A DNA stretch of 64,000 nucleotides from NCBI RefSeq assembly GCF_004010195.1, contig NC_057718.1:45424717-45488716 (forward strand), written 5' to 3'. Below the pieces are notes generated by a model. It had not been told where the DNA came from and did not search any database. It was given only the letters and a program-made list of their open reading frames with translations. Positions 9,355 to 61,970 of this stretch are shown here, piece by piece. The position numbers were made by a program, and so were the translations under genes. Numbering within the stretch: position 1 is the first letter of the stretch; every line of letters starts with the position of its first letter. The stretch is from Chiloscyllium plagiosum (Eukaryota).

Positions 9355-10800
9355 GATATGACACAAGAAGTAGGAGCATGAATAAGCCATATCACCTTTG
9401 AACTTGTGCCAGCATTAAATACACTGGCAGTTTTTCTACCTCAACTCCATCTTCTCGAACTATTGCCAGATCCCTTGATTTCTTTAGTATCTGAAAATCA
9501 TTTAGCCTCTGTCTTGAATATACTCAATAACTGAGCATCCTTCACCTTTTGGGATAGTGTGTTGATTCACTGCCCATCCCAGTCCTAAAGAGAAGATCCT
9601 TATTCTGAGGTTGTGGGCTGTGATTCCCTAGTTCTGTACTGCACTGCCACTCCCCAAAATCCCAGCCAGTAGAACTGTCCTTTTAGCATAACCTAATAAG
9701 TATTTTATTATGAGAGCTGCTTACTCTTTTATGTGAGAAGTTCTAATCCAGATCTAATTCATTCAGTTTTATTTCTTGTAATAGAATCCCCTCATCCCAG
9801 GAATCAATCTATTGAACCTTTTGACCTTCTTCTTTTAAAGCTTCTATAAAACATTAAAGCTCTAAAGTTTCTATATACTTCCTTCAGTGAGGAGATTAAA
9901 CCTATATATGGTGCTCCAGGTGTAGTCTCACCAAAGGCTTACATAATTCACTCTGCAACCCCTTTGTAATAAGTGCCTTCCTTCCTTGCTTGTTGTATTT
10001 GCATGTTAACTTTGTGATTTTGTACAAGGATATCTAGGTTCAAATTAATAGTAACATTTTTTAACCTTACACATTTTAAAAAATAAATTTGCCCATTCAA
10101 TTTTTCTAACTAAGGAATTCTGATGAATGGTCATTGACCTGAAACATGAACTATATCTCTTTCTGTCCTCAAATGCTGCCTCATTTGTTGAGTATTTTCT
10201 AACTTTTTTTGTTTTTTTTATTTCAGATTTCTATTATTTGTCAGATTTCACTATTGGATTATTTCACAATTCCCTAGTTATTTTCCATCTATCACGTTCT
10301 TGATCAATTCTTTGCTGATACTTGCTCACTGCAATTAATTATCAATTAACTTGAATGCATTACCCATGTCCCCTCCTTCATGTGATTGTTGGAGATTATA
10401 AATAGTTGAGGCCCTTGCATTACTCCTTATTTATAGCTTGCCAGCTGGAAAGTTATTCGTTTATTTCTATTTCCTTACTGTTAACCAATCTTCAAACAAT
10501 GCTAATATATTATCTGTATCCCATGAGCATTAACTTTGTGTCATCACTTCTAGTGCGGCATCTTACAGAGCACGAGAAAATGTGAAAATCCAAATAACTC
10601 CATTGGTTCCCTCTTAACTACCCTCATAGAATTGGTTTGAGATTATAACAGACTTGTCAAGCACGATTTCCCTTTCACAAATCCAGTGTGACTCTGGTAT
10701 GCTATGTTATAATTTTCTAAATTCCTTGTTACCACTCCCCAAATAATAAATTCTAGCATTTTTTCTACTATTGTTTCCTGGCTACTTGGCTGGTAGTTCT
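9355..10800 (-). mobile_element. Degenerate CR1 LINE fragment
   Basis: Reverse-complement CR1 3' UTR (aagtaggagcatgaataagcca), then decayed RT-region sequence. Confidence 0.65.
10115..10240 (+). mobile_element. Penelope-type pLTR short element with hammerhead-like core, nested in a CR1
   Basis: ctgatga-at-ggtca-t-tgacc-tgaaacat, followed by the family body (atgctgcc...tttcagatttc) seen at 48585 and 32455. Confidence 0.6.
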
Positions 10801-11134
10801 CCAGTTTGTTTCCCTGCTTTCTTCAGACTGTACTTCCTCATGAGTCAGGGGCTTGCATTTCCTGCCTGGCTCTGCCACCCATGCTATCTTTGTAGTGGGG
10901 TATAAGCGATAGCTTGCAGTTAGGGCTGCCACCTCTCAAAGCAAGCCTGAGGTGGCACATGATGCGATGATATCAACCCAGTTATGAGTATTAGGCACCT
11001 TAGCTTCATGTCTCTCCATACTTCTATCCCCACTCACCAAAATCTACATTAGGCTAATCATAAGCCCAAAATAACATTCAGAAATATTTGGGATGCTTAT
11101 AAAAATGCCAAAGCAAACAACCAACCAAACTCAG

Positions 11135-11465
11135 GGGAAGGTGAGGACCCAGTGGTATTATTGCTGGACTGTTAATCCAGAGACCCAGAAAATGTTCTGG
11201 AGACCCAGGTTCAAATCCTGCCATGGAAGAATTTGAATTTTAAAAAATTTTGGAATTAAGCATCGAATGACCATGAATCCATTGCTGATTGTGGGAAAAA
11301 CCCAGCTGGCTCACTAATGTCCTTTAGGCAAGGAAACTGCCATCCTTACCTGGTCTAACCCACATGTGACTCTAGACCCACAGCAATGTGGTTGACTCTT
11401 AACTGCCTCTGGGCAATAAATGCTGGCAGAGCCAGCGGTGCCCTCATCCTGTGAATGAATATTTT
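11135..11465 (+). mobile_element. tRNA-derived SINE with a LINE-derived 3' tail
   Basis: A-box-like (cagtggta), B box ggttcaaatcc, and tail gggcaataaatgctggc..gccagcg..gccc.catcc.gtgaatgaat shared with the LINE at 15905-15967. Further copies at 45637 and 53895. Confidence 0.85.
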
Positions 11466-11470
11466 TCAAA

Positions 11471-11527
11471 ATTATCAAAAATGCTTAATTCTATTAGGAG
11501 CACATAGAATTAAGCATTTTTGATAAT
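11471..11527. repeat. Perfect 24-bp inverted repeat with a 9-nt loop
   Basis: attatcaaaaatgcttaattctat-taggagcac-atagaattaagcatttttgataat. Confidence 0.95.
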
Positions 11528-12419
11528 CAAGCTGCCATAGAAGCTCCATTTAGCATCAAAAACGTAATCCTCTCAAATGCTGTTAGATAGTTAAAATAAA
11601 TGAAGAGCCACTCAAAAACCAATCAAAGAAACATAATCCTCCTGGGAGTTCACACTACCAGCATTTCAAAAACACGCACAGCACATTTAATAGCCCTGCT
11701 GAGTTGAATTCTGTAATGTGGTTTGGAGTTAAGCCAAGCATTCATTACATGATCAGATTGTAGAGCTTTGCAACAAAATCTCCAGAGCTTAACATGTTAA
11801 GCTTTTCAAGTAGTTAAATGAATAACTATGAGTTCTGTTACTTCAAAAGCCGAACAGCTGAATGAAGTGGCAATCACAGAAGTCAGCCATCTGATCAGCT
11901 ATTTCAAAGGCTTAGCAGATGACCTGCATTTCAATGTAAAGAACACAGTACATTGTCCAATTGGCAAATTAAAACCTGGGTCACAATACTGTTGAATACA
12001 AGAAGTCCTTTATCTCCTCTAGAAATTACTCCAGTATATCTTGCACAGTATTGGTCAATTTACTGGTCATTTGCATTTTAAGGACAAAGTTCTATTATTA
12101 ATTACAGTATCAAAAGCCAGCATAGGCCTCCCTGTAATCATGTAACCCCACTCATATGACCTGATTCACACAAGCTTCATAAAAGCATCCATCTCTCTTT
12201 AAATACCAAACACAGTGAAATACTAAATAGAGGTCAGCAGAAAAATGGGAGTCCTGACACTGGTTTGCATGTATGCAGAACACAATCTGCTGTATTTCCA
12301 CCATGTATGAAAATGGCAGCCAACAGCAATGAGGTCATAACTTTGGATTTCTGGTTCACCTCATTTCCATTTAAGTATACCAATGTGGGTTTGTTCTTCT
12401 TTGGGTTGGCAAAATATGG

Positions 12420-15967: not shown

Positions 15968-16079
15968 TGTGCCACTATGAAGGCATCAGTCAGCTGATCT
16001 AGATCTCCCACTGCCTCCAGGTGGCAGTCTGATGTACAGTAATGCTCAGTTAGGCAGAAGTAAACATACCTGGAGAAAA

Positions 16080-17534: not shown

Positions 17535-17605
17535 GACTGGGCTCAGGATCAACGGGTTCTGGAAGAAATGACGTGCAAGGTAGCACTGCAGCACCAGGCC
17601 TACAG
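17535..17605 (+). CDS. PTPN14: PTPN14 coding exon (FERM; human exon 6 equivalent, 71 bp)
   Basis: cag|GAC...TACAG|gtaag; DWAQDQRVLEEMTCKVALQHQAY; phase 0 to 2, matching the next exon. Confidence 0.9.
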
Positions 17606-20125: not shown

Positions 20126-20180
20126 TATGAGATAGAATGGAAATTTTCTCTATTCTCAATAGAAAAACTTAAATAACAAT

Positions 20181-20258
20181 GGGGTGGCATGGTGGCTCAG
20201 TGGTTAGCACTGCTGCCTCTCAGCACCGGGGTCCCAGATTTGATTCCAGCCTCGGGCG
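20181..20258 (+). mobile_element. HE1/V-SINE 5' end (runs into the gap)
   Basis: ggcatggtggctcagtggttagcactgctgcctc...gattccagcctcgggcg, the same head as the 61061 copy. Confidence 0.85.
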
Positions 20259-20831
20259 NNNNNNNNNNNNNNNNNNNNNNNNNNNNNNNNNNNNNNNNNN
20301 NNNNNNNNNNNNNNNNNNNNNNNNNNNNNNNNNNNNNNNNNNNNNNNNNNNNNNNNNNNNNNNNNNNNNNNNNNNNNNNNNNNNNNNNNNNNNNNNNNNN
20401 NNNNNNNNNNNNNNNNNNNNNNNNNNNNNNNNNNNNNNNNNNNNNNNNNNNNNNNNNNNNNNNNNNNNNNNNNNNNNNNNNNNNNNNNNNNNNNNNNNNN
20501 NNNNNNNNNNNNNNNNNNNNNNNNNNNNNNNNNNNNNNNNNNNNNNNNNNNNNNNNNNNNNNNNNNNNNNNNNNNNNNNNNNNNNNNNNNNNNNNNNNNN
20601 NNNNNNNNNNNNNNNNNNNNNNNNNNNNNNNNNNNNNNNNNNNNNNNNNNNNNNNNNNNNNNNNNNNNNNNNNNNNNNNNNNNNNNNNNNNNNNNNNNNN
20701 NNNNNNNNNNNNNNNNNNNNNNNNNNNNNNNNNNNNNNNNNNNNNNNNNNNNNNNNNNNNNNNNNNNNNNNNNNNNNNNNNNNNNNNNNNNNNNNNNNNN
20801 NNNNNNNNNNNNNNNNNNNNNNNNNNNNNNN
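20259..20831. other. Assembly gap (573 N)
   Basis: Run of n. Confidence 1.
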
Positions 20832-26564: not shown

Positions 26565-26964
26565 GTATGTACCTGGAGCTATAGTGGTTTGCTTTACAAA
26601 CTTCTTTGAGTTTATAGTAATTTAATAGTTATTTAAAAATCATTGTTATCCTCTTAGATACTTTGGAGTTGACCTCTGGCATTTATTCAGCAAGTTGTCT
26701 GTAAAGTTCCTTCTTTGTGAATCTTTTGTGATCATCTTATTCTAATTTCTAGCAAATGTCTTCTTAATACCCATGCTGCAATGTTTTTTTCACATTTTTC
26801 CTAAATGCATCAATTGAATGCCTGTTGAATTATGGTTTCCAGATATTGAACTGCCTTGTGAATTGTACTCTTCCAGATATCAACAGAAGCTATCACATCC
26901 ATTATTAATTTGAATTAAACAAATTTAAGCTTAATCTAAGGCATTTACAAACATCTTCAAATTT

Positions 26965-27180
26965 GGAGATGCCGGTGTTGGACTGGGGTGTACAAAGTTA
27001 AAAATCACACAACACCAGGTTATAGTCCAACAGGTTTAATTGGAAGCACTAGCTTTTGGAGCGCTACTGCTTCATCAGGTGATTATCAACCACCTGATGA
27101 AGGAGCAGTGCTCCGAAAGCTAATGCTTCCAGTTAGACCTGTTGGACTATAGCCTGGTGTTGTGTGATTTTTAACTTCAT
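26965..27180. mobile_element. Fold-back Penelope-type pLTR element with hammerhead cores on both strands
   Basis: Inverted arms ~26995-27085 and ~27087-27177; + core ctgatga-a-ggagc-agt-gctcc-gaaa-gc-ta at 27094-27122; TSD tcttcaaattt at 26954-26964 and 27181-27191. Confidence 0.85.
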
Positions 27181-31210: not shown

Positions 31211-31229
31211 GGGTGGTTGGGACTAGTAC

Positions 31230-33325
31230 AAACTGAGTGGGTTGCACCTGGGCAGAACTAGAACTGATGTTTTGGGTGAGTATTTGCTAATGCGATCAGG
31301 GAGGATTTAAACTAAAATGGCGAGGAGATGGGAACCTATACAAGGAGTCAGAAGACAGGGAAACAAAAGCAAGAACAAAGACTGAATGGGGAAATAAGAA
31401 AAGTCAATTCAAGGGCAAGAATCAAATGGCTAACATGTGAAATGTGAATGACACTAAGAATATTAAAAGTATGAGCATTCAGGCCTTGTGCCTTAATGCA
31501 CAGAACATTTGCAATAAAGCAGATGAATTATTTACACAAATAGATATAAACAAGTATGATACAGGTGAGATTGCACACGCGGAATATCCAGGGTATTCAC
31601 TTTTAGGAAGGACAGATGAAAAGGAGGTGAGGTAGCATTGCTAGTTAAAGAGGGATTTAACACAATAGTGAGGAAGGAGCTTAGCTGCAGTGAAGTGGCA
31701 TCTGTAGATCAGCAGAGCTTAGATACACCAAGCGTTGGAAAAAATAATAAGGGTTATATATAGTCCATCAAATTGTAGTGGTAATGTTAGGAAACGCAGT
31801 AATCTGGGAATTAGACATGCAAGCAATAGGGGTATGGCTGTAATTATGGGCAACTTTCATCTGCACATCGACTGGGCATAGCAAACTAAATGGTAGGTAT
31901 TCTCAGAGTGTGTGCGTGATAGTTTTCTGGATCAATATGATGAGGAACCAACTGGAGAACAGCCATCTTAGATTGGTTATTGTGTAATCAGAAAGGAATA
32001 TTTGGCAGTCTAGCTATGCAAAACATTGCAAGGGTGAATTAATATGATAGAGGTTTTCCTTAAAATGGAGAGTGATTTAGTTCATTCTGAGACTATGGTT
32101 CTGAATCCTAATCAAGGAGTCTGATGATATGAGATGCGTGCTAGCTATGATAAATTTGAGAACATTACTTAAAGAGATGAGGGTAGTAGGCAATGACAAA
32201 TATTTATTTAAAGAGTGCACGGAGGAACTGCAACAGTTATTCATTTTACCACGTGACAGGCATTATCTTGTGGAGTACTACAGGGATCAGTGCTTCACAA
32301 CATATATTAATGATTTAGTTGAAGGAACTAAATGTAACATATACAAGTTTGCAGAAGACAGAGTTGGGTGAGAGGTTAAACTGAGGAGGATGCAGAGAGG
32401 CTTCAGTGTGAATCTTAAAAGAAATTGCTGGAAAATCTCAGCAGGTCTGGCAGAAGTACTGAGGCAGGGTTGCTGGACCCAAAGCATTAACTCTGATTTC
32501 TCTCCACAGAAACTGCTAGACCTGCTGAGATTTTGTTTTAGATTTCCAGCATCCACGGTTCTTTCAATTTTTTTTGTCTGAAACAGAGAGGTGCAATGAG
32601 ACCTGAATGTCCTTGTACACCCACCACTGAAAGCAAGCATGCAGGTGCAGCACACAGTGAAGATGACAAATGGTATGTTAGCCTTCGTAGCAAGAGGATT
32701 CGAATACACGGGCAGGGAAGTCTTGCTGCAGTTGTACATGCCTTGGTGAGATTCGAATACACGGGCAGGGAAGTCTTGCTGCAGTTGTACATGGCCTTGG
32801 TGAGACCACACCTGTGCAGTTTTGGTCTCCATAGCTGAGAAAGGACATTCAGGTTATGGACAGATTGCATAGCAGACTGATTCCAGGGATCACAGAGTTG
32901 AAGAATGAAGAGAGACTTGATTGGTTAGGATCATTTTCACGCAGTTTAGAAGAACGAGGGGGGGTCGCATAGAAACCTATAAAGGTCTAGCAAGACAAGG
33001 TAAATGCAGGAAGCATCTTGTAAATGACTAGGGAGTCCTGAATAAGGGCTCATAATTTAAGCATAGAGGGTCGGCTATGTAGCACTGAGATGAGGAAAAA
33101 TATCTTCATCTAAAGAGTGGTGAGCTGTAGAATTCTTTGCCACAGAAAGCGGTTGTGGCCAGAACATTTGAACTTGTTCAAAAGGAGTAAGATACAGTTC
33201 TTTAAGTTAAAGGGATGAAAGGATTTGAGAGAAAGCAGGAACAGGGGTCTGGATTATTATCCACAATTATATTGAAAAGCAGAGCAGGCTCAAACGGTCT
33301 ATTTTCTGTGCCTATGTCTTTCGTG
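31230..33325 (+). mobile_element. Old CR1 LINE (end of ORF1, EN, deleted RT, 3' end)
   Basis: GLHLG (ORF1 end), LCLNAQNICNK and IMGNFH (APE endonuclease), YKFAED, LYMALVRPHL. Confidence 0.85.
32410..32580. mobile_element. Partial fold-back PLE-type short element nested in a CR1
   Basis: aaaatctcagcaggtctggcag is inverted against ctgctagacctgctgagatttt; decayed core ctgaggcagggttgctggacccaaagc. Confidence 0.7.
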
Positions 33326-34695: not shown

Positions 34696-34984
34696 CTTCA
34701 ATATAAAATACTTAGCTACAAAGAGATTGCAATGGAACATGAACGTACCATGACTGATGTTGTAACTGTTAAAAATTAAAATGGTTGCTTTTCATTTCTC
34801 CTTCTCGTGTATGATAAGTACAAAATTTAAAATTTACTCCTTGTCAGTTTGATAACTGGCTAGATTGCAAAAGACGATTTTATTTCTTAGTGTAGGGGAG
34901 TCCAAAACTCTTCTACCATCTCCAATTAAAAGTTTTTAAATTTTCTTTTTTATGACAAAATATTTTAGAAAAACAGCTAGAAAA

Positions 34985-35082
34985 TAAAAAAAACAGAAAA
35001 TGCCGGAGAAGCTCAGCAGATCTGGCATATTTGTGGAGAGGGAAATAATTAACATTTTGAGTGCAATGACTCTTTTCTGAAA
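34985..35082 (-). mobile_element. PLE-type short element (same family as 48585)
   Basis: aaacagaaaatgccggagaagctcagcagatctggca..tttgtggagag...ttaacatttt, reverse complement of the family body. Confidence 0.6.
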
Positions 35083-35584
35083 AATAACAGGTTGCATAGC
35101 TAATAATTCAATTTTCAGAACAATATCTGATTCAAGAGAGTGTCATCATTGTTTAAAAATATTCTTTAAGAATATATTTGGTTTCATTATATCACTGGCA
35201 GTTTTTGATAAAAATTTGACTGTACCTCTTCCACATGACAATGACTACTTGATAGTTCAAGTTTTTATTTTAAGTTTAGATTATGCTGCTTGTTGCGTTG
35301 GGCAGGTATTCTGATTATATTCTAATAATATTTTGCTTTGATTGAATAATTATTTGCTAATGTTTAAAAAAAAATGTTGTTTTGACTTCCACATGGAGTG
35401 ACGAAAGTTTGAGTTTAATATTGGGTGTCTGCAGACTTTAAATGTTAAAGTAAAAATGTTCCTTGTGTGGTTTTCATTACCTCATGCAATGCTTACCAAA
35501 TTAAGTATAAAACTAATACTTGAATACTAATTAAATAAAGAGCCTAAGGATCTATTGATGCTGCATCCCTCTTGAACACATCTG

Positions 35585-38560: not shown

Positions 38561-39877
38561 ATACTGTCATGTCAAGATTGAAAAATATGAAAGTGCTGAG
38601 AGTAGATCAAAGGGGGGGTCTGATATTATGGTCACAAGGGTGTAAAGCAGAGCAGAAAGACTGATAGGGCAGTCTGAAGGTCATAATCTGGAGGAGGATG
38701 GTCTGAACGTACAGGTTGAGGGACGTATGTTGGCACTTCTAAGTCCAGGATCAGCAGCCAGTGAAAGCACTTGAGTCAGGCCAGTGGAGATCACATGTCC
38801 CTCTATCACTGAACACAGGTGGAAGGATCGATGCTGAGGGATATGTCTGCAGGAACCAGTGACCTCATCAGAAGGTTGGAGGAGCAAAATATCCAGTCCA
38901 AACCATGTCATTGAATGGCCCTGCATTTCACCTTTCTTCCCCAGCCGCTAGGGAATCTTAACTTTTGGGTCCACTGACAGGAGCCTGTCCCCTGGAATAA
39001 ATTCTCCCCTTGTTTTTAGTATTAGAGAAATTCTTCCTTCATTGTCACCAGGTTGGGTTTGTGCATTATGATTGAGCTTATAGTGATTTCCTGATGAAGT
39101 TTGTATTGCAAACTGTTCATATAACTTACAAATGAAATGTGGAATGCACTTTGGTACAAGTATTCAATGTGCCTTTTATTAAGATTGATAGAGAGTATAT
39201 TAATCAATTGATGAGGCTGTTGGCTGATCGTGACCAATCAGTCCAAACCCATTTTTATTACATCATATTATTGAACTTGTACTCTTACTTTAGGGAATCA
39301 ATTGTGTAATTATGACCATTGTTATTGTTAAAGCCAAGTAGTATCTTTAGTTAATAGGAAACTCTGAATCCATGTTTTTTAACTATAATTTCCTCAACTT
39401 TTATGCACCCAGCAATCACTATAGCTAAACCTAAACTAAACACTATACCAGGGTTTAAGAAAAGGAAATAAAAATTATAAAGTGTTCAGAGTAGGAATTC
39501 TTCAGGTGTGAAGAGCAAGGATAATGTGATTCAATTAATAACAAAGAAAATATAGGTTGAAATCCAAATTTAACTGATATGTTGCAGCTGCAGCATATTG
39601 GAGTTCCTGGACACAGAGGTGACCCATATCTGCTGCATATTTGCAGCTTGAGCAGCTTCCAATCAGAGTTGAGCTGGAGTCCAGATATTGCACCAAATCA
39701 AGGAGGGATACATTATCTGGATGCTTTGCTCCCCCTTGGATTTATATTGTATCTCACTCTGGTAGTGTGTTGGAAATAAAGCCCAGATATTCCTGGAGTA
39801 GTCACAGAAGTTAAACGATTTGGTAAAAGTATACAGGTCCTTAAGCTAAAGCAAAGACCTGTGGGTGCTGAAGAGTT

Positions 39878-40045
39878 GAAACAAAAACAAATCCTGGAGA
39901 AACTTAGCAGGTCTAGCAGTATCTGCAAAGAGAAAGCGGAGTTAAAATTTCGAGCCCAGTGTCCCTTCGTCAGAACTGGTCTCAACTTCCCCTCCACAGA
40001 TACTTCCAGATCTGCTGAGTTTCTCCAGCAATCCTTTTTTTGTTA
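39878..40045. mobile_element. Fold-back PLE-type short element with a minus-strand hammerhead-like core
   Basis: ctggagaaacttagcaggtct is inverted against agatctgctgagtttctccag; minus strand reads ctgacga-a-gggacactgggctc-gaaa-ttt. Confidence 0.75.
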
Positions 40046-48584: not shown

Positions 48585-48717
48585 TGCCCTAAAGAAGGGT
48601 CACTGGATCCAAAATATTAATTCTGCTTCCTTTGTAGATGCTGCCAGACCTGCTGAGTTTTTTGCCCAGTTTCTATTTTGTTTCTGATTTCCAGCATCCG
48701 CAGTCCTTTTTTTTTGA
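48585..48717 (+). mobile_element. PLE-type short element with a decayed hammerhead core
   Basis: ctaaaga-a-gggtc-actg-gatcc-aaaa, then agatgctgccagacctgctgagttt...gatttccagcatccgcagt. Confidence 0.75.
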
Positions 48718-49109: not shown

Positions 49110-49900
49110 ACATAGGAAATAGGATCTGGAATAGGCCACTCAGGCGAAAGTGAGGACTTGCAGATACTGGAGATCAGAGTCAAGATTAGAGTGGTGCTGG
49201 AAAAGCACAGCAGGTCACTCAGCATCCGAGGAGCAAGAAAATCAACATTTCGGGCAGGAGCCCTTCATCAGGAATGAGGGCTCATTCCTGATGAAGGGCC
49301 CCTGCCCGAAATGTCGATTTTCCTGCTGTTCGGATGCTGCCTGACCTGCTGTGCTTTTCCAGCACCACTCTAATCTTCACTCAGCTCTTCAAGCCTACCC
49401 CACCATTCAGTAAGATCATTATTTGACTTTAACCTCAACTCTCCATTCCTTCCTCCCCTGTTAACCTTTTACCTCTTTGCTTATCATGAGTCTGTCTGCC
49501 TCTGTCTTAAAATATTCAAATCTTCTGCCTCTGCCATCTTTTGATGAAGAGAGTGCCAAAGACACTAACCACTTTGAGAGAAATAATTCTCCTTATCTCT
49601 GTCTTAGCTGGACAACCCTTAATTTTTATTACAGTGATTCTCCCACAAGAGGCGATATCCTCTCCACAGCAATCAAAACCTCTCACTTTTGATGTTTTAA
49701 TCCTTAATCTTCCAAAGTCTAATGGATATGAGCCAAGCTTGTCCAACTTTCCCTCATAAGAAGACTTAATGAGTCCAGGTATTAGTCTGGGAGACTTCCT
49801 TGAAATGCCTCCTACATGTTTACATTTTAGATTAAATAGGGAGACCAGTACTGTACACACTATTCCAGGTGTGGTCTCAGTTATACCCCGTATAACTGAA
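49110..49900 (-). mobile_element. CR1 LINE 3' fragment (host of the 49144 hairpin element)
   Basis: Minus-strand TTPGIVCTVLVS, RLIPGL..SYEGKLDKLG; CR1 tail at the left end. Confidence 0.8.
49144..49377. mobile_element. Fold-back Penelope-type element, ~100-bp arms, two head-to-head hammerhead cores
   Basis: Arms 49177-49278 and 49281-49382 with a 2-nt spacer; + core ctgatga-a-gggc-ccct-gccc-gaaa-tg-tc at 49288-49315; mirror core on the minus strand; TSD cactcag at 49137-49143 and 49378-49384. Confidence 0.88.
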
Positions 49901-50055
49901 GCATATCGCCCCCTGAAAGATGTAACACAGATTGTGTATATAAAGGCAGTGATTTTATTGTAGATTGAGGTATCATCTCTGTGATCTTGCATATAGTAAA
50001 GCTTTAAACTGCAGTCATTTAATCACAATTTTTAATTGTTCATGCTTTATTTTAG

Positions 50056-51527
50056 ATAGCATTTACCATGGCAATGAGGAAAGATTCTACTGCAGATCTC
50101 AGTCTAGTTTGGACAGATGTCCAGTGGAATATAATTACATGAATGGAACTGTGCCAAATGGCAGTGTATATAGTGCTTCTAGCATGAACTCATTGAATCA
50201 TTCACAAAACTTCATCCAGGCATCACCAGTGTCTTCTAATCTCAGCATTCCTGGAAGTGACATCATGCGTGCAGATTACATCCCCAGCCACAGGCACAGT
50301 GCTATCATTGTCCCCTCATATAGGCCTACGCCTGACTACGAGACTGTAATGAGGCAAATGAAACGAGGCATCATTCATATGGATTGTCAAAGTCAGTCAT
50401 TGAGAAACCTTAATATTGGAAATACTCATGCATACAATCAGCCAGAACCTATGGTTTACAGTCAACCGGAGATTAGGGAGCGATCGCAATATCCCTCTCG
50501 ATATGGGTCAAAGCACAGTTACAGTAAACCTGTAGCCACTTCTGCTCAACAAAATGCCAGCCATCCAGCATCTACCCGGACAGCAAATAGTGCAATCTCA
50601 CACACAGTAAGCACACCAGAGCTTGCCAATATGCAATTACAAGGTACTCAGAATTACAGTACTACCCACATGTTGAGAAACCATTTTTGTAGACCACCCC
50701 CTCCATATCCACGTCCTCGGCCTGCCACTAGTACACCAGACCTTGCCAGTCACCGCCATAAGTACGTTAGTGGCAGTAGCCCTGATTTAGTCAGTCGGCG
50801 GGTCCAGCTCTTTGTGAAAACATTTCAAGAGGACAGTTCACCTGTCGTACACCAGTCCTTGCAGGAGGTCAGTGAACCCCTCACAACAGCCAAACATCAT
50901 GCAGCTGTTAACAAACGTCACAGCCTAGAGGTAATCAGTAGTATGGTACGAGGTATGGAGGCCATGGCACTGAAAACTTTAAGTGCTTCAGTCCCTCAAC
51001 GTAGGAACACCATGCGTGACCAACGCCGTCAAGACGACCAGGTTCAAGAGGTTCAACAGCAACCTTCATATCATCACAAGAAGACACTGTCGGATGCCAC
51101 AATGCTAATTCACAGCAGTGAAAGTGAAGATGAAGAGGAGACCCCTGACTATGATGTCCAAATACCAACATTTAATCACAATATAGACTATCGAGCCCAG
51201 CTGCAGGCAGCATTGGCAAAAATACCAAACAAACCCCCTCCTGAATACCCAGGCAACAAAAAAAGTATAAGCAATGGTGCCTTAAGACAGGAACAAGCTA
51301 AAATGTCAGAGTTTGCTATCAGGAACAAACTGCCAGGTCCTGAACTGGATACATTCTCACGAAATGAACAGATGACACTTAATGGGTCTTCACTTGGGCC
51401 ATCCATTTCTGAGCCTGATCTCACCAGTGTGAAAGAGCGTGTCAAAAAGGAGCCAGTCAAAGAAAGGCCTGTATCGGAACTGTTTTCTACTGAAGACAGC
51501 ATTGTGGAAAGGGAAATCATGTTGAGG
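50056..51527 (+). CDS. PTPN14: PTPN14 large linker exon (exon 13 equivalent, 1472 bp) with two PPxY motifs
   Basis: tttag|AT...TTGAGG|gtaatt. Contains SSNLSIPGSDIMRADYIPSHRHSAIIVPSYRPTPDYETVMRQMKRG, RPPPPYPRPRPATSTPDLASHRHKYVSGSSPDLV and KPPPEYPG, diagnostic of PTPN14. Confidence 0.98.
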
Positions 51528-52238
51528 GTAATTCTCTTTATTTCTAATATCATGGATGCATATTTATGCAACTGGAAAAATGCTGGTTTAGAATTTATCA
51601 AAGGGTTAGAGATACCTTGTTCCATATCCATATTGTATAGCCAAAAATTATAAAATATCTTTTGTTATATGGAGAGATAATTATCTGTATTAATAGAGAT
51701 TTTAGTGTGTTGTTCCTGCAGAAAAAAATACAACAATCATATTATAATTTTCTTAAAGTTTACTTTTCTTTATAAAGTTAATACTTAAAATATTAAAATC
51801 AGATCCACTTCTTGAACAAGGGAAATTGTGTTCTTGGGTTTAAGCACAATCTGTTTTAAAAGCTCTTTGCCTTATCTCCATTTTTTTAAAATCCAAAGTC
51901 AGTTCAATGCTCCCATAAATCATTGAGTTCAATTAATTGTTTTAATTCAGCTAAATGAAATCACTATGCCATTCCTAAACATTTTTCATTCCTAGTCTGG
52001 TTATATTCATTTGCTGATAAAAAGTGAAAAATGGTGCTTAATTCTGTAAAGCTTAACATTTGATAAACAGAACAGTATTTTATGGATATTTTTGGAGTCA
52101 AAAGAATGTTATTTGTAATGGTCACCTGGGTTCAATATCTTTGTTAAGCCAATTGTTGAAAGATAAAAAATTTGGTATTATTTTTACTTTCGAATATCAG
52201 TGCCAATGACATTAGCATTTCTTCTTCCCCATCCAAAG

Positions 52239-52388
52239 AATTTAGAAAAGCAGAAACTAGCAGCAGCAGCAGAAGCCCAAAAGATAGGGCCACTGAAGTG
52301 GGCGGCCCTCAATGGACTATCAATGGCCAGGGTTCCAGTGCTCGAGGACAGCCAAGATGACACTTCAAAGGTCCCAATGGATGAAAGG
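52239..52388 (+). CDS. PTPN14: PTPN14 coding exon (exon 14 equivalent, 150 bp)
   Basis: ccaaag|AAT...AGG|gtgagc; NLEKQKLAAAAEAQKIGPLKWAALNGLSMARVPVLEDSQDDTSKVPMDER. Confidence 0.93.
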
Positions 52389-53475
52389 GTGAGCATATTT
52401 CAAGTAGTGAAAGAAATTGTAATGCTTACAAAAATAACCTTCCTGTTTGCAGCCTTTTTATGTTGCTCAATTTGACTTGTTTGATCATTCATTGACTCAG
52501 GATTGAACATTATTTACATATTACTGAAGACAAAAGCAGAAGTAATAACATCAGTAGTTCACATTAAACATATTATGTTCTGAGGAATCATTCTGCTTGT
52601 CATTTGCTAAACATGTCATGTTGTCTTTGAGTTATAATTGAGGTGATGCGATAGCATACGTTAGGGTTGCCACCTGGTTCGAGATAACACAAATGTAAAA
52701 TAAACTTAGGACCTTTCCTCACAAGACTATCGGAAATTATGTTAAAATATGATAAAAGTGTTTAAAGCCATGAAAGGCTGAGATAAGCTTATATAAAAGC
52801 AGACTTGGTCATTTAACAGCCATTAATGCAAGACGTAATGAAAGATTTACGATATCTTTATACAGTGAGTCAAGAATATAGAATTTACTTCCAGGATTAG
52901 TCATGGAGGTAGAATCCAAGTAAACATTGAAGGTTAGGTTGAATAATGGAAAGAGTGGTTAAGGTAACTGGCATCGTACCTGAGATTGGGACTGTTTTGT
53001 TGAATAGAGAGTAAACAGTAAAGCCACCCAGTTATGTCAAATATTTTGTTTTGGTATTACAGCTTCTATAGGTATTCTTTGTATATCTCTGTGTCTTTAC
53101 ATGTAAGTATTGCATAAAATAATAAGCCCTACATTGGTTGCAAAACAACAGGTTTTCCCTCCTGTTATAAATGATTTAATCTTTACTCTGCTCTGACATT
53201 ACATAATGTGCTGTTTTAAATAAAATTACCAAAGAGGAATGACTAAAAAGTTGTAATCTTTATATATTTGTAGCACAACTGACTCATAGTACTGGATTTG
53301 AATATTTGAAAACCATTTGTGTTGTTATTTTTATTGAAGTTATCCCTGTGGCTCTTAGGATCTTTCCTTCATCAAGGCTTGTGTAGCAATTTCCCTATCT
53401 TTTTGCTGACCTATTGACACAACCATATAGACCTCGTTTGTTAAGTCCCAATTGTCAGAAAAATGTCTTAGGAAT

Positions 53476-53874
53476 TAACGAGTATTGAGAAGATTTGTAG
53501 CTCAGCTTGAGGTTCTGGATGTAGATTTGCTTGCTGAGCTGGAAGGTTCATTTTCAGACGTTTTTGTCACCATACTAGGTAATATATTCAGTGAGCCTCT
53601 GGACGAAGCATTGCTGGTATTTCCTGCTTTCTATTTATATGTTTGGGTTTCCTTGGGTCGGTGATGTCATTTCCTGTGGTGACGTTGCTTTCTATGGTGA
53701 TGTATGTCCTGTTCTTTTTCTCAGTGGACGGTAGATGGGATCCAAGTCAATGTGTTTGTTGATAGAGTTCTGGTTGGAATGCCATGCTTCTCGGATTGCA
53801 CGAGAATACACCACTAGTATGGTGACGAAACATCTGAAAATGAACGTTCCAGCTCAGTGAGCAAACCTACATCC
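53476..53874 (-). mobile_element. 5'-truncated Penelope element: end of the GIY-YIG ORF, pLTR, and an inverted partial pLTR
   Basis: Minus strand EAWHSNQNSINKHIDLDPIYRPLR (53790-53718); inverted arms 53516-53578 and 53814-53875; TSD atgtctta(g/a)gaat at 53463-53475 and 53875-53887. Confidence 0.85.
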
Positions 53875-53894
53875 ATGTCTTAAGAATAGTTTTC

Positions 53895-54120
53895 TTTTCT
53901 TTGATGATATCAGGCTGTCACTGCCAAAGACAGTATTTGTTGCTCATCTCTAATTGCCTTTGAATGGAGTAAGGACTATGCCATTTTAAAGGAAAATTAA
54001 GAGATAACCACTTGTTCTGGGTCTCAAGGTAAATGTAGGCCAGACTAGGTAAAGATAGGAAGATAACCTTCCTTAAGGACATTAGTGAACTACTTAGATT
54101 TTTTGCAATAATCAATGCTA
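53895..54120 (-). mobile_element. 3' half of the 11135 tRNA SINE family
   Basis: Reverse complement of ttcactaatgtcctt.aggaagg...tacctagtctggcctaca and the tail. Confidence 0.7.
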
Positions 54121-54159
54121 GTTTCAGAGCCACAGATAATTAAGGCCATATTGCAGAAT

Positions 54160-55290
54160 TTGCAGAATAGATTCAATCCAACAATTCCTTGGGAAGGACT
54201 CAATATCTATAGTTCATTAAAAAGGTTAAAGGTTATATTTGAGGGAAAAGGACATAATTGTACAAAATAGGGTGGCAGGTCAGAAGATTGGGCAGAACAT
54301 ACAGAAAAATGACAAAAAGATCAAACAGGAGTGAAATCTAAATGAATCAAACTGGTATTTTGTGTTGGTTTTCACAATAAAAATTTAACCAACATCTCAG
54401 AAATAGCTGTCAATAAAGAACTGGAAGGGAGGGAGAAATTCAGGAAAATAACAGTCACCAAGAAAATAGTACTTATCAAATTATTGGAAGTATGGGCCAA
54501 CAAGACCCCAGGTTCTGATGTTTCCATTCTAGGGTCTTAATAGATGTGGTTAGTGTGATAATTATGTGTTGGTTGTAATTTTTCAGAATTCATTAGATTT
54601 GGAGAAGGTTCCATTAGATTGGAAAATAGTTGATGTAGCTCCTTTATTCCAAAATGAAGGAACACAGAAAACAGGAAATGATAGGCTAGTTCACTGTCTC
54701 ACTTCCTTTTGAGGAAGAGAGTTGCAAAAACTTGAAACCTTCTGAGGAACAAAATCTCCTGGTCTCTGCCTTCAATAAGTGACCTGAAGTTTTAAACCGT
54801 GACCCCTGTTTTTAGATTTTTCCAGAAGAGGAAACATCCTTCCCACAATTCCACATCCACCTTGTTGAGCCCCCTCAGAATCTTGTATGTTTCAATGAAG
54901 ACATGTTTTCCTCTTCTAAACTCCAGTGCATACAAGCCTAACTTGACTAGCCTTTCCACAAAAGATGACTGCTTATTCCAGGGATTGGCCTAAAATGCTT
55001 TCTCTGAACTGCCTGCAATGTATTTCCGTACTACCGTATATAGGAAGATGAAATGTTGTACTCTAGATCTTTTTCTCTCAAGTACCCTTTATAAATGAAG
55101 AATAGCCTCCCTACTTTGGTATTCATTTTTTTTTTTTGCAAAACAAACATTATATTTACTTTCTGATCTACTTGCTGTGCCTACACACTAACCTGTTTTT
55201 TATGCATTTGGCATCCCAGAGCTCTGCAATCTCTTACCATTGTGAGAATATGCTAGTCTTTTTTTATATTCTGCCTGTGGAAATGGACAG
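54160..55290. mobile_element. Two degenerate CR1 fragments (+ strand ~54160-54690, - strand ~54695-55290)
   Basis: + part: IFQNSLDLEKVPLDWKIVDVAPLF; - part resembles the CR1 3' region. Confidence 0.6.
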
Positions 55291-56809
55291 TTTCTTTTAG
55301 GTTTGAGGTGAAAGGGCTCCCAATGTTGCAAATAAAATATTTTCCAGGTTGGTGCTTTTTTTTTTACCCCGCCCCACTCTTCTGTCTCTTTATCTTTATT
55401 TTGAATCATTACGAAAACATTAGCAAATGAAGGCTCAGTCCAAAGGAGTATCTTGTAGCCTTGAACAAATTACTTTTTATTATTATTATCTTTTGGATAA
55501 GTGTTGGTATGAGAGACATGTCATTCCCAAGCCAATTTAAATATTTCACAACATGTTTTACTTTTTAATCCTTTTTAGGCAGTATTTCTGATCAGTTTTC
55601 TGTGCTGTGTAAAGGTATAGCTATTAATGAAAATAATTGCTATACCTTCTCTCCCTTTTCCATTTGATCTGCAGTATTAATATGAATCTAGACTTGTCAA
55701 CACACTAAACAATTTAAAACATGAATTTATTACAGCCCAGTATTGAAGGAAAATAATTGAGTTAGCAAAAATATCTGAGCTGAAACAATACATGCTATTG
55801 ATTGTTTGCTTTCAAATGTGATGCGACAAAAGAGGGTGTGAGTTACTGATACGTTAAGTGAAATTGATGTAAGACATTTTTGGGTACAAGGTGCTGTTGA
55901 CCCATTATCTATCTTTTTTGACCCATTGGGAGTCAAGAGTTTTTGAATGCAGATTGGAAAATGGAACAGAGAAGATGGACAGATGGCCATGATCTTATAT
56001 TGAGTGGTCAAACAGGCTCAAAGGAGATCTTCTGCCTTGCAGTCCTATCTGCCCATCTCTTTTCTCCCCTTCCATTTCTCCAACTTCACACATACTCAGG
56101 ATGAGTCTTGTCAGGTGTTGAGAAGTAGCACTACCAGGATCAAAAGTGGGAACTGACCCCTTGCTGGAAGGAATTTGGAAAATCTGGAATTGTTGCAGAA
56201 AACTGGGGCGATTGAGCTAGTCCTGACAATCAGGGGTGAAGGGTGTGAGCAAATGTATTTGCTATGGTGGCAGCCTCCTGGTGAAAGTTAAATGGTGATG
56301 TATGAGGAAAATGATCCTTATTTGGTTGCCTCGATAGTTCATTTGGCCACCTGAATAACAACTGTGATGTTGATGTGCCTGTTACTAATAATATATCAAG
56401 GTTATCCAAAGATTTTGAGCTTCTCTCCCAGTGCCTCCCCCCTCACATTACCAGCCTGTTATTATAGGGCTGGTACACCTAATGTGACTTACATTTTATC
56501 CTGTTATTTAATGAAAGGTCCAGAGCCATTCTAATGAGACAAATCTATCTGAGAGTCTGACTCAGCATGTAATTTTAGTTTGAATTATCCAGAATTTCAA
56601 CTTGCCTAGGGGAAATAAACCAAAGAAACTTTGTGATTTAGAATACAAGTCTAATGATCTTACATTTTATGGAATGGTTTATCTAGGCTCCACTCACTTT
56701 CTCTCACCTGAAAATGTGGAGTGTGATGATGGCCTTACTGCAGTAAATTTCAGTTTGGCTCATCCACCAATCGAGACTTGTTCAGGTAGGACACTGGGTG
56801 AGAATGGTT

Positions 56810-57973
56810 CTGAGGTAGTCATATATATGGACTTTAAGGCGTTTGATAAGTTTCCCCATGGTAAACAAATAGAGAAGGTGAAGTCATATGAAGTGCAGGG
56901 TGTTCTAGCTAGGTGGACAAAGAACTGGTTGAACAACAGGAGACAGAGTAGTAGTTGAAGGAAGTTTCTCGAAATGGAGAAAGGTGACCAGTGTTTTTCC
57001 ACAGGGGTCAGTGTTGGGGCCACTGTTGTTTGTGATATACATAAATGATCAGGAAGAGGGTACTGTTGATATAATCAGCAACTTTGCAGATGACACAAAG
57101 TTGGTGGAGTAGCAGAAAGCATAAGGGACTGTCAAAGAATACAGGAGGATATAGATAGACTGGAGAGTTGGGTGGAAAAATGGCAAATGGGGTTCAATCC
57201 AGACAAATGTGAGGTGATGCATTTAGGCAAGACTAATTCTAGAGTGAATTATACAATGAACAGAAGAGCCTTGGGAAACGAGAGATCTGGGAGTGCAGGT
57301 CCATTGTACCCTGAAGGTTGCTGCACAGGTCATAGAGTCATAAAGAAGGCATATGGTATGCTTGCCTTCATTGGGTGGGGTATTGAGTATAAGAGCTGGC
57401 AACTCATGTTAAAATTGTACAAGACATTAGTTTGGCCGCATTTAGAATACTGTGTACAGTTCTGGTCGCTACATTACCAATAGGATGTGTATGCTTTGGA
57501 GAGGGTGTAGAGAAGGTTTACAAGGATGTTGCCTGGTATGGAAGGTGCTAGCTATGAAGAGAGGTTGAGTAAGTTAGGTTTGTTTTCATTAGAAAAAAGG
57601 AGATTGAGGGGGGACCTGATTGAGCTTTACAAAATCATGAAAGGTATAGACAGGGTGGCTAGAGATAAGCTTTTTCCTAGGGTGAAGGATTCAGTAACGA
57701 GAGATCATGATTTCAAGGGGACAGGTGAAAAGTTTAAGGGGAATACACGTGGCAAGTACTTCACACAGAAGGTGGTGGATGCCTGGAACACGTTGCCAGC
57801 AGAGGTGGTAGAGGCAGGCAAGGTAGATTCTTTTAAGATGCATGAGTAGGTGGGGAGCAGAGGGATACAGATGCTTAGGAATTGGGTGACAGGTTTAGAC
57901 AGTAGATTTGGATCAGCTAGGCTTGGAGGGCCGAAGGGCCTGTTCCTGTGCTGTAAATTTTCTTTGTTCTTTG
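56810..57973 (+). mobile_element. 5'-truncated CR1 LINE
   Basis: YMDFKAFDKFPHG, NFADDTK, LVWPHLEYCVQFWS, LFSLEKRRLRGD; tail ttctttgttctttg. Confidence 0.95.
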
Positions 57974-58464
57974 TAGGGAAATGGAATCCATCTTGTCCTC
58001 ACATTGTGCTCTCTTTGATCAAAAGCTGGGTCTGCTCTAATTGACCTAATTTCTTCCTCATGTTGCCCTGCAGCCCAATCGACATATTTAGCAAATTTAT
58101 AATTTATTCAACAAAGTCCTGAAGAGAATTTACAGAATAAGTTTTAGTAGTGTGCCGATGACGTTTTTACAATATGTCTAGAAGTCCCCAATGTGTTTCA
58201 CAATTCATCTTCAAATTTCTAAGAGAAACCGAGTAATAAAAGAGTTTTGACACATTGTCTAGGGTAAAGATGTAATATAAATACAGTTTGTGAATATGGC
58301 TGCTAACACCTGCTTTATACTTGTGTATATATTGAAATAGTTCTGGGGATCCTTTATAATAACCTGTTTACTCCGAAACAACTGATCTCTGTTCAGAAAA
58401 TGTGACAATTGAAGTTGTAGTCTCGGAAATTCCATGCATTTTCTGAGTGAGTTCCACTTAAGTT

Positions 58465-58915
58465 ACCTTTAATATGGCACCTTTTGTGCATAAACGCATC
58501 CCAAAGTTCTTCGGAGAGGTGTAATCAAACTAAAAATCAGGGATTAACCAAAGAAAGAGATATTGGGAAAAGTGATCAAAAGCTTAATTGAAAGGTGCAA
58601 TTTTTAGTGAGTGTGGTCTTAAAGGAGGAGACTGAGCTAAGGGCTTTGAGGGACAAAATTCCAGAACATGGCTCTTAAATGGCAGATTGAACCACTGCCA
58701 ATGGAGGGGGGAGAAAGGTTACAAGCAAAATAGGTTAAAGGACTAGTAGCTGTGTATGACCTTTTATAGGAAGCTGCCTGCTGTATGTTTGGTTCAGTTG
58801 AGGTTTATGCAGAGTGGGAAACCTGACAGGAGAATATTGGAATAGTTGAGAGTGGGTCTGACAAGGCATGGTTGAGTTTTTGAACAGCAGAAGAGCTGAG
58901 AAAGGGATTGAGGCA
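58465..58915 (-). mobile_element. L2 LINE 3' fragment
   Basis: Reverse-complement L2-type tail (atatggcacctt...catcccaaagt.cttc) followed by purine-rich L2 body. Confidence 0.55.
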
Positions 58916-59093
58916 ACTTATATACATCAAACCTAATTCAACAGAGAAATCTTTACATACAAGGGAATGAAGTTTCATTGTTGAAAAGAGTTCTACAGCT
59001 GGAAAAAATGTACAATATTGAGGTGGAACTTCTGCAATTCTTGTAGTTCTGGAATAAACATGGAAGTTTGGTTACTGCTAGCAACTTTAATAT

Positions 59094-59803
59094 AGTGCGC
59101 GCACATACACACACACACTCATGCAGAACCCCCCCTCTCATGTGCACACACATGCACTCCCCGCACTCACACCCATGCACGCGCCCTCTCACAGGCTTAC
59201 ACCCCATCACACTCACGTACATACTTGGCCAAGCCTACACACACGTACACACACTCTTTCACATGTACTCGTACCACATGCACACACCCGCTCTGTCTCT
59301 CCTGCATGCGCGCACACACAAATTTGTGGGGTGGAACTTTAGTTGCAGAATTATATTTTATTTTGCTCAAAAGCTGCACAAATCCATGTAGGATTCTGAA
59401 AGTCCTACTTTAGAAATAAAACTGACTCACATTGGGACAGACTTTAAGTTCACACCTTTAATATATTGTCTGAGCTAAAATAACACCTATTGTTAGATAA
59501 ACTGAAGCCATCATCAGAATGTAACTTAAAGGTTTTTGAATTTGCACATTTAAAAGCCTAAACCAGCATATCCCATCCTAGAAGATGCAAGACTTAATCT
59601 AAGTTTGTTTAATATTACAACTCCGTGACACTTTAACCTTTTGCTATAAATTCGGTGTCATACGGTCATGTTCCACAACCACCTGGTGAAAATGCAGTGC
59701 CTCAAAAGCTAGTCCTTCCAAATATACTTGTTGGACTATAACCTGGTATTGTGTGATTTTTAACTTTGTCCACGCCAGTCCAACCCTGGCACCTCCAAAT
59801 CAT
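59094..59803 (+). mobile_element. PLE 3' region (CA-rich segment plus pLTR), parent family of the 26965 hairpin
   Basis: 59675-59803 matches the 26965 element arm (caaccacctg.tgaa...aaagctagt.cttcc...gttggactataacctggt.ttgtgtgatttttaacttt...ctccaaat). Probable TSD aacttt(a/t)atat at 59083-59093 and 59804-59814. Confidence 0.75.
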
Positions 59804-60184
59804 AACTTTTATATCAATACAGTATCAGTGATAACTTAGGAATTTTACATCCCAGATCCATCTCTACGGTCGCAGAGGACAGACTAACGTGGAGTAGTTA
59901 ACTCCATGAGCTTGTTAATCATTTGACATTAAACTACATTAGCTTAGAAATGGGTTTGTCTTCAACCTGATAAACAGGGCTGTACTTTTACTGCTCGAAG
60001 CAGCTGTAAATTTCCTTGAATACAAATTACCATTGGAGAGAATACCAGGAGGCTGCTTATAGCTTTTCCAACCTACATCATTTCTGTTAGCACTGTTAAG
60101 GTCAAATTTTAATGTTTATAGTTGACGAAAGGTCATGTAATATAACCTTTTGAGGGTTGAGGGGGGTGGGGGTTGTTGGTTTGC

Positions 60185-60390
60185 CCAGTGGGCTGGGCAA
60201 CTTTTTTGCCATACAGACTTCTTCCAACAGCGTGGGTTCAATTCTTGCACCAGACGAGGCTACCATGAGAGCCTCTTGTTCTGAACCTCTCCCCTCACCT
60301 GAGGCGTGGTGACCCTCAAGTTAAACCATAACCATTCATCTCTCTCTAATGAGAGAGAGCAGCCATGAGGTCTGGTAAGACAATGGAAAG
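60185..60390 (+). mobile_element. Unnamed tRNA-like SINE
   Basis: B box gggttcaattc; body shared with 6375-6485; small hairpin ctctctct-aatg-agagagag. Confidence 0.55.
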
Positions 60391-61060
60391 TTAAGATAGT
60401 TGCAGTGAGAGGTGTGTATGTGTGGGGTGAAATTCTAGCAATACATTTACTGTGAAATGCTGACTAGTTCTGTGCTTGGATAAAGATTTGACTCTGCTAT
60501 GACACAACAATCTGTCAAAATGACCACCTGTTTATTGGTGGGTGGTGTGTTTCCATCTGGATAAGTTTACAGTTCTCGGACATTAGTGTTTAACAGTTAA
60601 TCAGCCTGACCAGATAGCTTGCTTTCAACTTGGTAATTTTTAGGTATATGGTCAGTACTATATGTAGTTCTTTGTCATATATTGGTTCATACTATTTTAT
60701 GGTAAATCAATAAAAGATATATTTAATTTTAAATAGAAGCCAAATTGATGGTCAATGTTTTTGCTTCTGCTTTCAGTGGTGATTCAATGTTGAGCTAATA
60801 CAAAATGCATTAAAAGTATCTTTGATATGAAGTGTCACTTAAATAGTGTTCAATTTATTTGTAATTGGATGATAGAAGATGTATGAATTGTTAACATATT
60901 TCTATTGTTGACTAGGCACTGTTTAAGAAACCATTTGTAGCAATGGGTAATATCACAAACCCAAGATAATCTTGTTCTTTGCTTGATGGATACTATCAAG
61001 CATATTGTGTGTACCTGTGTTATTGCATTGGATATCTGACCACTTCTCACAACCTCTCTT

Positions 61061-61359
61061 GGGGTGGTATGGTGGCTCAGTGGTTAGCACTGCTGCCTCA
61101 CAGCGCCAGGGACCCACGTTCGATTCCAGCCTTGGGTGACTGTGTGTGGAATTTGCACATTCTCCCCGTGTCTATGTGGGTTTCCTCCGGGTGGTCCAGA
61201 TGTGCAGGTCAGGTGAATTGACCATGCTAAATTGTCCATAGTGTTAGATGCATTAGTCAGGGGTAAATGGGACTGGGTGGGTTACTCTTCGGAGGGTCAG
61301 TGTGGACTTGTTGGGCTGAAGTGCCTGTTTCCACACTGTAGAGAATCTAGTCTAATCTA
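61061..61359 (+). mobile_element. HE1/V-SINE, near full length with a small internal deletion
   Basis: tRNA head (tggctcagtggttagc, gttcgattcc), V-domain tgtgtggaatttgcacattctccccgtgtct.tgtgggtttcctccggg, and CR1-like tail cctgtttccacactgta..(aatct)n. Confidence 0.92.
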
Positions 61360-61381
61360 AAATTACATTCTATATAAATAG

Positions 61382-61532
61382 GAGAAAGTGAGGACTGCAG
61401 ATGCTGGAGATCAGAGCTTAAAAATGTGTTGCTGGAAAAGCACAGCAGGTCAGGCTTATGCTCGAAACGTCGATTCTCCTGTTCCTTTGATGCTGCCTGA
61501 CCTGCTGCGCTTTTCCAGCAACACATTTTTAA
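61382..61532. mobile_element. Fold-back PLE-type element (family of 49144) with its centre deleted
   Basis: Arms ttaaaaatgtgttgctggaaaagcacagcaggtcaggc and gcctgacctgctgcgcttttccagcaacacatttttaa; only ...gctcgaaacgtcga of the core remains; 15-bp TSD attctatataaatag at 61367-61381 and 61533-61547. Confidence 0.88.
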
Positions 61533-61970
61533 ATTCTATATAAATAGTCTACTGAATAATCCGAGCCTTTAAGCTTTTAGCTCGGATGGTAATAATGTCA
61601 TAACAATTTTGAAAGTAACTGGCTATTCAAATTTATTATACTGGATGTTACGTAAAAGAATAACAACAAACAACGAGCTTACCTTTTGTTTTGAAAAGTG
61701 ATTCTCTAACTATGACTTAAAAAGAGCAGATGTGAAAAGTGTTACTTAATGGTTTGAGAAATCTATCATTCAGATACTTCCTTGACTGAAGCATGCCATT
61801 GATGTATTAAGTATTAGTGTAACTAGTCCATGTCAGTGAACGTTGATATCCATAGATTTCAGTTATTATGTGCAAGGAAGCTGTTTTTCAATTTTAAAAA
61901 ATAAATTGACTGTAAAAAAAACTTCATAAGTTAGTGGCCCTGACATTTTGTGAACTCCGAAATGTGTGCC

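Follow-up and report, generated by a model that had tools for sequence, protein, structure and literature searches.

Short inserts with hammerhead remnants in and around a shark gene: probable insertion products of Penelope-like elements

Based on the published descriptions of Penelope-like elements (PLEs), for which the comparisons made here refer to selected text passages of the papers cited, both an insertion unit and a minimal hammerhead ribozyme can be set beside the sequences reported below. In a rotifer, the PLE unit comprises an adjacent inverted pseudo-long terminal repeat (pLTR), a 31-bp tail on one inverted pLTR and a target-site duplication (TSD) of 8-10 bp, and the palindromes at its junctions were interpreted as self-priming (Arkhipova et al. 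2013, PMC3846280). An inverted pLTR with a one-sided tail of 30-40 nt and a TSD has also been presented as the general PLE insertion unit (Craig et al. 2021, PMC8557442). The features of the minimal hammerheads of PLEs, and pairs of them on opposite strands 100-700 bp apart (in Schistosoma), have been described as well (PMC4209133). For PAc, a Poseidon element of Anolis, two start sites of reverse transcription (RT) bound the tail, targets are AT-rich and uncleaved RNA is the main template (Frangieh et al. 2024, PMC11167929), while the metazoan retrozymes without long terminal repeats (non-LTR retrozymes) are defined by units arranged head to tail in tandem, each with its own ribozyme (bioRxiv 10.64898/2026.07.22.740005). 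In the part of the list in PMC5753468 considered here, UCON13 is the sole Penelope entry. Here we describe ten short inserts, lying in and around one shark gene, in a 64-kb window of Chiloscyllium plagiosum (64,000 nt, contig NC_057718.1, positions 45,424,717 to 45,488,716; hereafter the window, whose own numbering is used throughout), at a density of 10 per 64 kb.

This insert population is real, lies well above chance and is explained by known PLE biology, so that it is largely ordinary; what novelty is left lies in how the inner ends cluster at the foot of the hammerhead. We conclude, with good confidence, that the inserts are independent, transposition-dead insertion products of endonuclease-positive (EN+) PLEs, each with only the hammerhead-bearing 3' end (the pLTR), and that the inverted arm likely came from the same insertion. 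This reading is supported by the constancy of the outer ends, the restriction of the tail to one arm, the AT-richness of most TSDs, the differences between junctions and, in one copy, the end of a PLE open reading frame (ORF). An earlier note on this DNA had preferred independent truncation products among its options, a preference borne out by the ORF end (in insert H) and by the one-sided tail and TSD of PLE insertions. As shark instances of a known PLE insertion anatomy, the inserts can aid repeat annotation and offer a dense natural record of PLE integration.

All ten insertions listed in that note were recovered at their loci by self-comparison and by alignments within groups; they are labelled A (10115), B (26965), C (32410), D (34985), E (39878), F (48585), G (49144), H (53476), I (59094) and J (61382). 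They form three unrelated groups, namely group 1 (A, C, D, E, F, G and J), group 2 (B and I) and group 3 (H). The previous count of at least four unrelated families is ruled out by a central block of ~30-45 nt and a tail that G/J and A/C/D/E/F have in common (blastn E down to 2e-5, and alignment). Searching the window with profiles of the ten inserts brought up no additional copy, the reversed control likewise giving zero. Four inserts are single arms: A (10109..10232, + strand, group 1, decayed core at 10120), D (34980..35086, - strand, group 1, decayed), F (48586..48706, + strand, group 1, with a tail and a decayed core), all three with approximate edges, and I (59094..59803, + strand, group 2), a single 710-bp arm with ~590 nt upstream of its decayed core at 59683, and a tail. 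The upstream part of I (59094-59350) opens in a degenerate CA-rich tract, which is either element sequence or a microsatellite-like truncation point.

The remaining six inserts (B, C, E, G, H and J) are head-to-head fold-backs, six being also the number of inverted-repeat structures given earlier, and five of the window's six longest inverted-repeat pairs are among them; no single strand is assigned to B, C, E, G or J. Insert B (26965..27180, group 2; seen by inverted repeat, alignment and folding) has arms at 26995-27084/27088-27177 (90% identity) and cores at 27078(-) and 27094(+), 15 nt apart, with the tail-bearing arm on the - strand and the tail-less arm on the + strand. Insert G (49144..49377), from a second subfamily of group 1, is a symmetric fold-back with arms at 49168-49278/49281-49391 (90%), and J (61382..61532), from the same subfamily, is an asymmetric one (61413-61455/61495-61537, 93%), whose right arm begins inside stem II, without CUGANGA. 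Two further asymmetric fold-backs belong to group 1: C (32412..32563; 32432-32453/32513-32534, 95%), with a long tail-bearing + arm (decayed core at 32459, internal deletion) and a short - arm that begins ~57 nt downstream of the core, and E (39851..40042; 39876-39941/39981-40046, 73%), with its tail-bearing arm on the - strand and a core at 39973. In H (53476..53874, - strand, group 3; 53516-53563/53828-53875, 90%) the second part is an inverted tail-less arm (53814-53874). The extra tail stands on one arm only, being ~30 nt long from 26965 in B, 27-29 nt in E, ~38 nt on the left arm of G, 40 nt in H and 36 nt on the short left arm of J; in C it is also present on one arm, but blurred by deletion. 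The earlier proposal of a non-coding palindrome as the minimal integrated unit is too strong, since four of ten inserts are single arms and one fold-back (H) is coding.

For TSD scoring, insert edges were set by eye from the within-group alignments (those of A, D and F being approximate), and significance was expressed as the count of 1500 random edge pairs scoring as well. No random pair was as good as the TSDs of B (11 bp exact, 26954..26964 on the + strand, second copy 27181-27191), H (13 bp with 1 mismatch, 53463-53475/53875-53887) or J (15 bp exact, 61367-61381/61533-61547), whereas 8/1500 were as good for I (11 bp with 1 mismatch, 59083-59093/59804-59814) and 22/1500 for G (7 bp exact, 49137-49143/49378-49384). 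These are the five inserts for which TSDs of 7-15 bp had been claimed, and all five are significant; a probable sixth, absent from the earlier note, is found in E (10 bp with 1 mismatch, 39841-39850/40043-40052, 22/1500), which shifts the left edge of this insert to ~39851. Five of the six TSDs are AT-rich, and that of A is borderline (74/1500).

With the described EN+ PLE insertion units, the shark inserts have in common the head-to-head inverted pLTR, the tail at one end, the TSD, the junction palindromes, the strong 5' truncation and the solo pLTRs. They differ in that nine of ten are without an ORF, ten lie within 64 kb and most begin 0-8 nt upstream of the core, a clustering of starts that does not appear in the passages of PMC3846280 and PMC8557442 considered here. 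The tails of B, G, H, I and J (e.g. 26965-27004, 49144-49195 and 61382-61430) additionally show, on the sense arm and in all three groups, a pyrimidine-rich run ending in CAG near the tail start, and the tail-less arm stops 0-15 nt short of that AG; in B and G, a branch-point-like TTAAC/CTAAT stands upstream of this CAG. Judged against the splice consensus, the tail CAG may be the acceptor of a pLTR intron.

A strict minimal-hammerhead descriptor matched three times in the window (27094+, 49288+ and 49271-), that is, in three arms of two inserts; over 200 dinucleotide shuffles of the window it matched 0.025 times on average and never more than once. The complete motif (CUGANGA, an extra nucleotide, stem II with a G-C closing pair, and GAAA-NN-UH) stands in the right arm of B (27094..27121, + strand; CUGAUGA, one extra A, a 5-bp stem II and GAAA-GC-UA) and in both arms of G (49271(-) and 49288(+), 16 nt apart). 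The CTGANGA-stem II-GAAA pattern, described earlier as shared in "intact or decayed" form, is intact in these three arms but mostly decayed, given that eight of ten inserts fail the descriptor and J has lost CTGANGA altogether. Across groups, stem II varies in sequence yet remains paired (as judged by eye, without a formal covariation count). The likeness to PLE minimal hammerheads (PMC4209133) covers CUGANGA, the one extra nucleotide before stem II, the G-C closing pair and the palindromic bases after GAAA, and extends to the many sequence families per genome, the prevalence of single motifs and the opposite-strand pairs. The shark motifs differ in having a stem II of 4-6 bp and mostly decayed copies; sharks are unnamed in the passages of that paper considered here, and cleavage by the shark motifs is putative. 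None of the 14 matches in an Rfam scan of the window (E <= 10) was a hammerhead, and degenerate hammerhead patterns matched at no locus in contigs from metagenomes, prokaryotes and viruses, which is what shark repeats would lead one to expect.

The link to a PLE reading frame comes from H, the minus strand of which reads through the C-terminal end of an RT/GIY-YIG protein (53603..53805, - strand; main match 53707-53805, with 53603-53677 in another frame). This remnant matches a Stegostoma protein (E 4.3e-10), whose matching region finds the Chiloscyllium protein P0003 (77% identical to H over 30 aa). P0003 has a reverse transcriptase match (PF00078) with an E of 3e-6, and GIY-YIG matches were obtained in 4 of 29 scanned proteins, upstream of the H-matched stretch, with E between 2e-4 and 2e-3; every one of these Pfam matches falls below its curated cutoff. 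In P0003, what we take, by eye, to be a GIY-YIG-like motif lies ahead of the same stretch. From its minus-strand match to these relatives, H, with its decayed core near 53591, is a PLE copy that has been truncated at the 5' side and bears an inverted arm of its own terminus, and the terminal residues of P0001 and P0003 would overlap its hammerhead core. For groups 1 and 2, PLE membership is likely on the grounds of their anatomy. In the PAc element the ORF starts at stem II, whereas the group 3 shark ORF end runs up to the core, as judged from the relatives P0001 and P0003 (PMC11167929). P0001, P0002 and P0004 are shark gene models (CDP-alcohol phosphatidyltransferase, EYA3-like phosphatase and MAP3K7) that contain the group 3 PLE ORF end, either by exonisation or as an annotation artefact. 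Four other top protein matches (P0005, P0006, P0009 and P0026) are plainly unrelated repeat proteins by Pfam and were left unused.

The inner ends of the inserts are less scattered than 5' truncation would suggest under a simple model. Relative to the first core base, the tail-bearing or only arm ends at -4 in A, -8 in B, -5 in C, -2 in D, -7 in E, 0 in F, -8 in G, ~-210 in H, -589 in I and +57 in J (those of A, D and F placed by eye), and the other arms at -7 in B, -8 in G, +9 in J, +12 in H, ~+36 in E and +57 in C. Inner ends therefore fall 0-8 nt upstream of the core, a 9-nt window, in seven of ten inserts (four of six among the fold-backs), with P ~1e-8 under an ad hoc geometric-truncation model that was run after the offsets had been tabulated and in which H was entered as -220. 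The simplest reading of this clustering is a template 5' end, or a strong stop, just upstream of stem I. Ribozyme cleavage as the source of the inner ends was rejected: the predicted cut site lies at ~+30, the seven clustered ends lie elsewhere, 12 of 16 arms span the site (by eye), and only the short arm of E, with an ambiguous alignment, might start near it. The spanning arms are consistent with the uncleaved template reported in vitro for PAc (PMC11167929). Among the text passages covered by our literature search, with repeat databases and supplements outside its scope, no paper was found that states a clustering of inner ends at the hammerhead foot; a pile-up at this upstream foot, seen across unrelated families, makes it inexpensive to test where the template starts and whether cutting is part of the ribozyme's role.

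The junctions between arms differ within groups (G -8/-8 vs J +57/+9; C -5/+57 vs E -7/~+36; B a fold-back vs I a single arm). The apices are nevertheless less random than the varying positions remarked on earlier imply, the cores of B and G, from two unrelated groups, lying 15 and 16 nt apart. Since a single TSD brackets both arms and the junctions differ between relatives, the second arm likely arose in the same event. In the mechanism that we propose, partly by analogy with PLE biochemistry, a GIY-YIG endonuclease would make staggered nicks in AT-rich DNA, giving rise to the TSD, and RT would begin at either of two adjacent sites, which delimit the tail. Copying would usually halt ~5-8 nt upstream of the core, probably at the template 5' end or at a structural stop, on RNA left uncut at that ribozyme. 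The second arm could then form either when the cDNA folds back and primes itself, or when synthesis is primed once more at the opposite nick and the two copies are joined head to head; its outer end would lie at the tail-less site, and J would fit second priming better than self-priming, unless its centre was lost later. After integration the inserts would decay, and a transcript across a fold-back would be a long double-stranded hairpin, without cleavage. One may go further and suppose, tentatively, that shark PLEs have a programmed short product, in which RT from the tail site runs off the RNA 5' end ~8 nt upstream of the uncut hammerhead, and the resulting strong-stop-like cDNA is inserted directly or folded back. 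If true, the pLTR-only units would be a SINE-like (short interspersed nuclear element-like) non-autonomous class conserved across unrelated PLE families, and the hammerhead fold would mark the template start rather than cut it.

Three DNA contig sets and one RNA run were placed over 58900-61700, which covers I and J; we consider the best 15 of 3260 joints and 24 of 4935 loose ends, some having gone uncounted. Summed depth, which depends on local identity and is not a copy number, reached 1.2-2.5 million over the pLTR end of I and 0.4-70 thousand over its upstream part, with mostly 1-50 over the unique flanks, and was very high over J as well. The outer end of J recurs, with loose ends before 61380/61381 (872-1295 records per listed row) that lead into unrelated AT-rich flanks (agreement ~0.33); for group 2, joints leave at 59764-59769, among the joints listed. 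In the RNA reads over J, 548 break off before 61453 and 349 behind 61455, which indicates that the junction of J is atypical of its family. The RNA run, of poly(A) single-cell type, showed no end pile-up over 58900-61700 and is uninformative on self-cleavage. For 50000-59900, no RNA data set was listed as matching, which speaks neither for nor against. Two further repeats were noticed in this placement: a SINE-like repeat of very high depth adjoining J (61060-61350, and 20180-20256, where the second copy enters an assembly gap at 20259-20831), and another at 60216-60403 (~14-20 thousand summed depth).

Several observations weigh against independent PLE insertion products. The ORF link is direct for one of three groups only (group 3), tblastn with eight proteins detected no other PLE coding remnant in the window, and a protein search with the translated G arm gave zero matches. 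The TSDs of C, D and F are at chance level against the 1500 random edge pairs. No empty site was seen, and a second organism also carries insert I (one contig extends across its right edge by 49 letters). No apex was mapped by any of the best 15 of 3260 joints. The similar core spacing of B and G, which belong to unrelated groups, is also what a fixed hairpin master would give, and in J the shorter arm bears the tail, which simple self-priming explains only with a later deletion.

The alternative that survives best, although we consider it somewhat unlikely, places the template elsewhere: a short non-coding, pLTR-only RNA, starting just upstream of the hammerhead, would be produced by single-arm masters and mobilised in trans by the PLE reverse transcriptase, as a SINE would be. 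The inverted arm would still be built at each insertion, so this differs from independent PLE insertion products solely in the template source. The clustered starts of seven of ten inserts are what it predicts (with the same model and the same by-eye placements), as is the steep depth excess at the pLTR end of I, and pLTRs with an internal promoter (PMC2377424) and a pLTR in cis sufficient for mobilisation in trans (PMC3846280) are on record in the passages considered. However, H and I reach ~210 and 589 nt upstream, so that longer templates were used, identical ends would result if RT stopped at the folded ribozyme or if a full-length RNA were copied from its 5'-proximal tail site, and the depth over I varies with local identity rather than copy number.

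It is far less probable that the hairpin itself transposes as a unit, as a self-propagating fold-back of retrozyme-like or MITE-like (miniature inverted-repeat transposable element-like) kind. The near-symmetric B and G with their similar core spacing would suit it, and arms of the same locus are each other's closest relatives in G (36/38), J (34/36) and C (21/23) and tied in E (30/38), which fits one template per insertion equally well. No junction is shared between fold-backs of one group (six fold-backs in the window), four of ten inserts are single arms, and TSD lengths vary from 7 to 15 bp. Non-LTR retrozymes, known among chondrichthyans from the single one sampled, resemble the shark inserts in being non-coding, pLTR-related, bearers of a type-I hammerhead and dispersed as monomers; the shark inserts differ in consisting of one arm, or of two set head to head, with a tail and a TSD. 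None of the four tandem arrays in the window has hammerhead units or overlaps an insert. With two cores on opposite strands, one transcript holds a sense core and its complement and cannot form a tandem dimer, and RNA folding of both symmetric fold-backs (B and G) predicts the core as paired (P unpaired <= 0.001), that is, a hairpin predicted to bury its own ribozyme core. The retrozyme-like self-propagation that the earlier note had kept as an option is accordingly not upheld. The consensus of RNA loose ends upstream of 61453 (548 reads, agreement 0.55) equals G for 17 letters and then matches 2/13 of the G mirror arm; this also speaks against a transposing hairpin, but weakly, as hairpin reads may have been filed as joints.

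That the fold-backs formed after insertion (through two separate integrations, by recombination or in the repair of a palindrome) or reflect errors of assembly is the least probable of these explanations: palindromes are prone to central deletions, which might explain J, and whole fold-backs are spanned by zero listed contigs (J alone being covered), but one and the same TSD encloses the two arms of B, G, H, J and, probably, E, the arms diverge by 5-27%, unlike an assembly mirror, and the one-arm-only tail occurs in all three groups. MicroRNA precursors were rejected on Rfam scores of 24-30 bits against cutoffs of 70-100. The formation of an inverted arm is not described for PAc in the passages of PMC11167929 considered. 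No shark-specific description of these families was found in the literature, although Repbase, Dfam, subscription papers and supplements may already contain them.

The inserts stand in a window of vertebrate DNA (39% GC) with LINE (long interspersed nuclear element) fragments. A PTPN14/21-like phosphatase exon lies at 62801-63175 (top PDB match PTPN14, E 3e-37). An open frame at 49953..51653 (+ strand), given here as context and without a Pfam match of its own, presumably belongs to the same host gene, judging from its position. A 5S rRNA-like match above the Rfam cutoff (35881-35992, + strand, 40.2 bits) may represent either a pseudogene or the leading part of a 5S-derived SINE. Two other inverted structures have no relation to the three hammerhead groups: inverted arms of 49 nt at 6957-7005 and 7534-7582 (86% identity, 528 nt apart), and an AT-rich perfect hairpin at 11471-11527, with 24-nt arms and a 9-nt loop.

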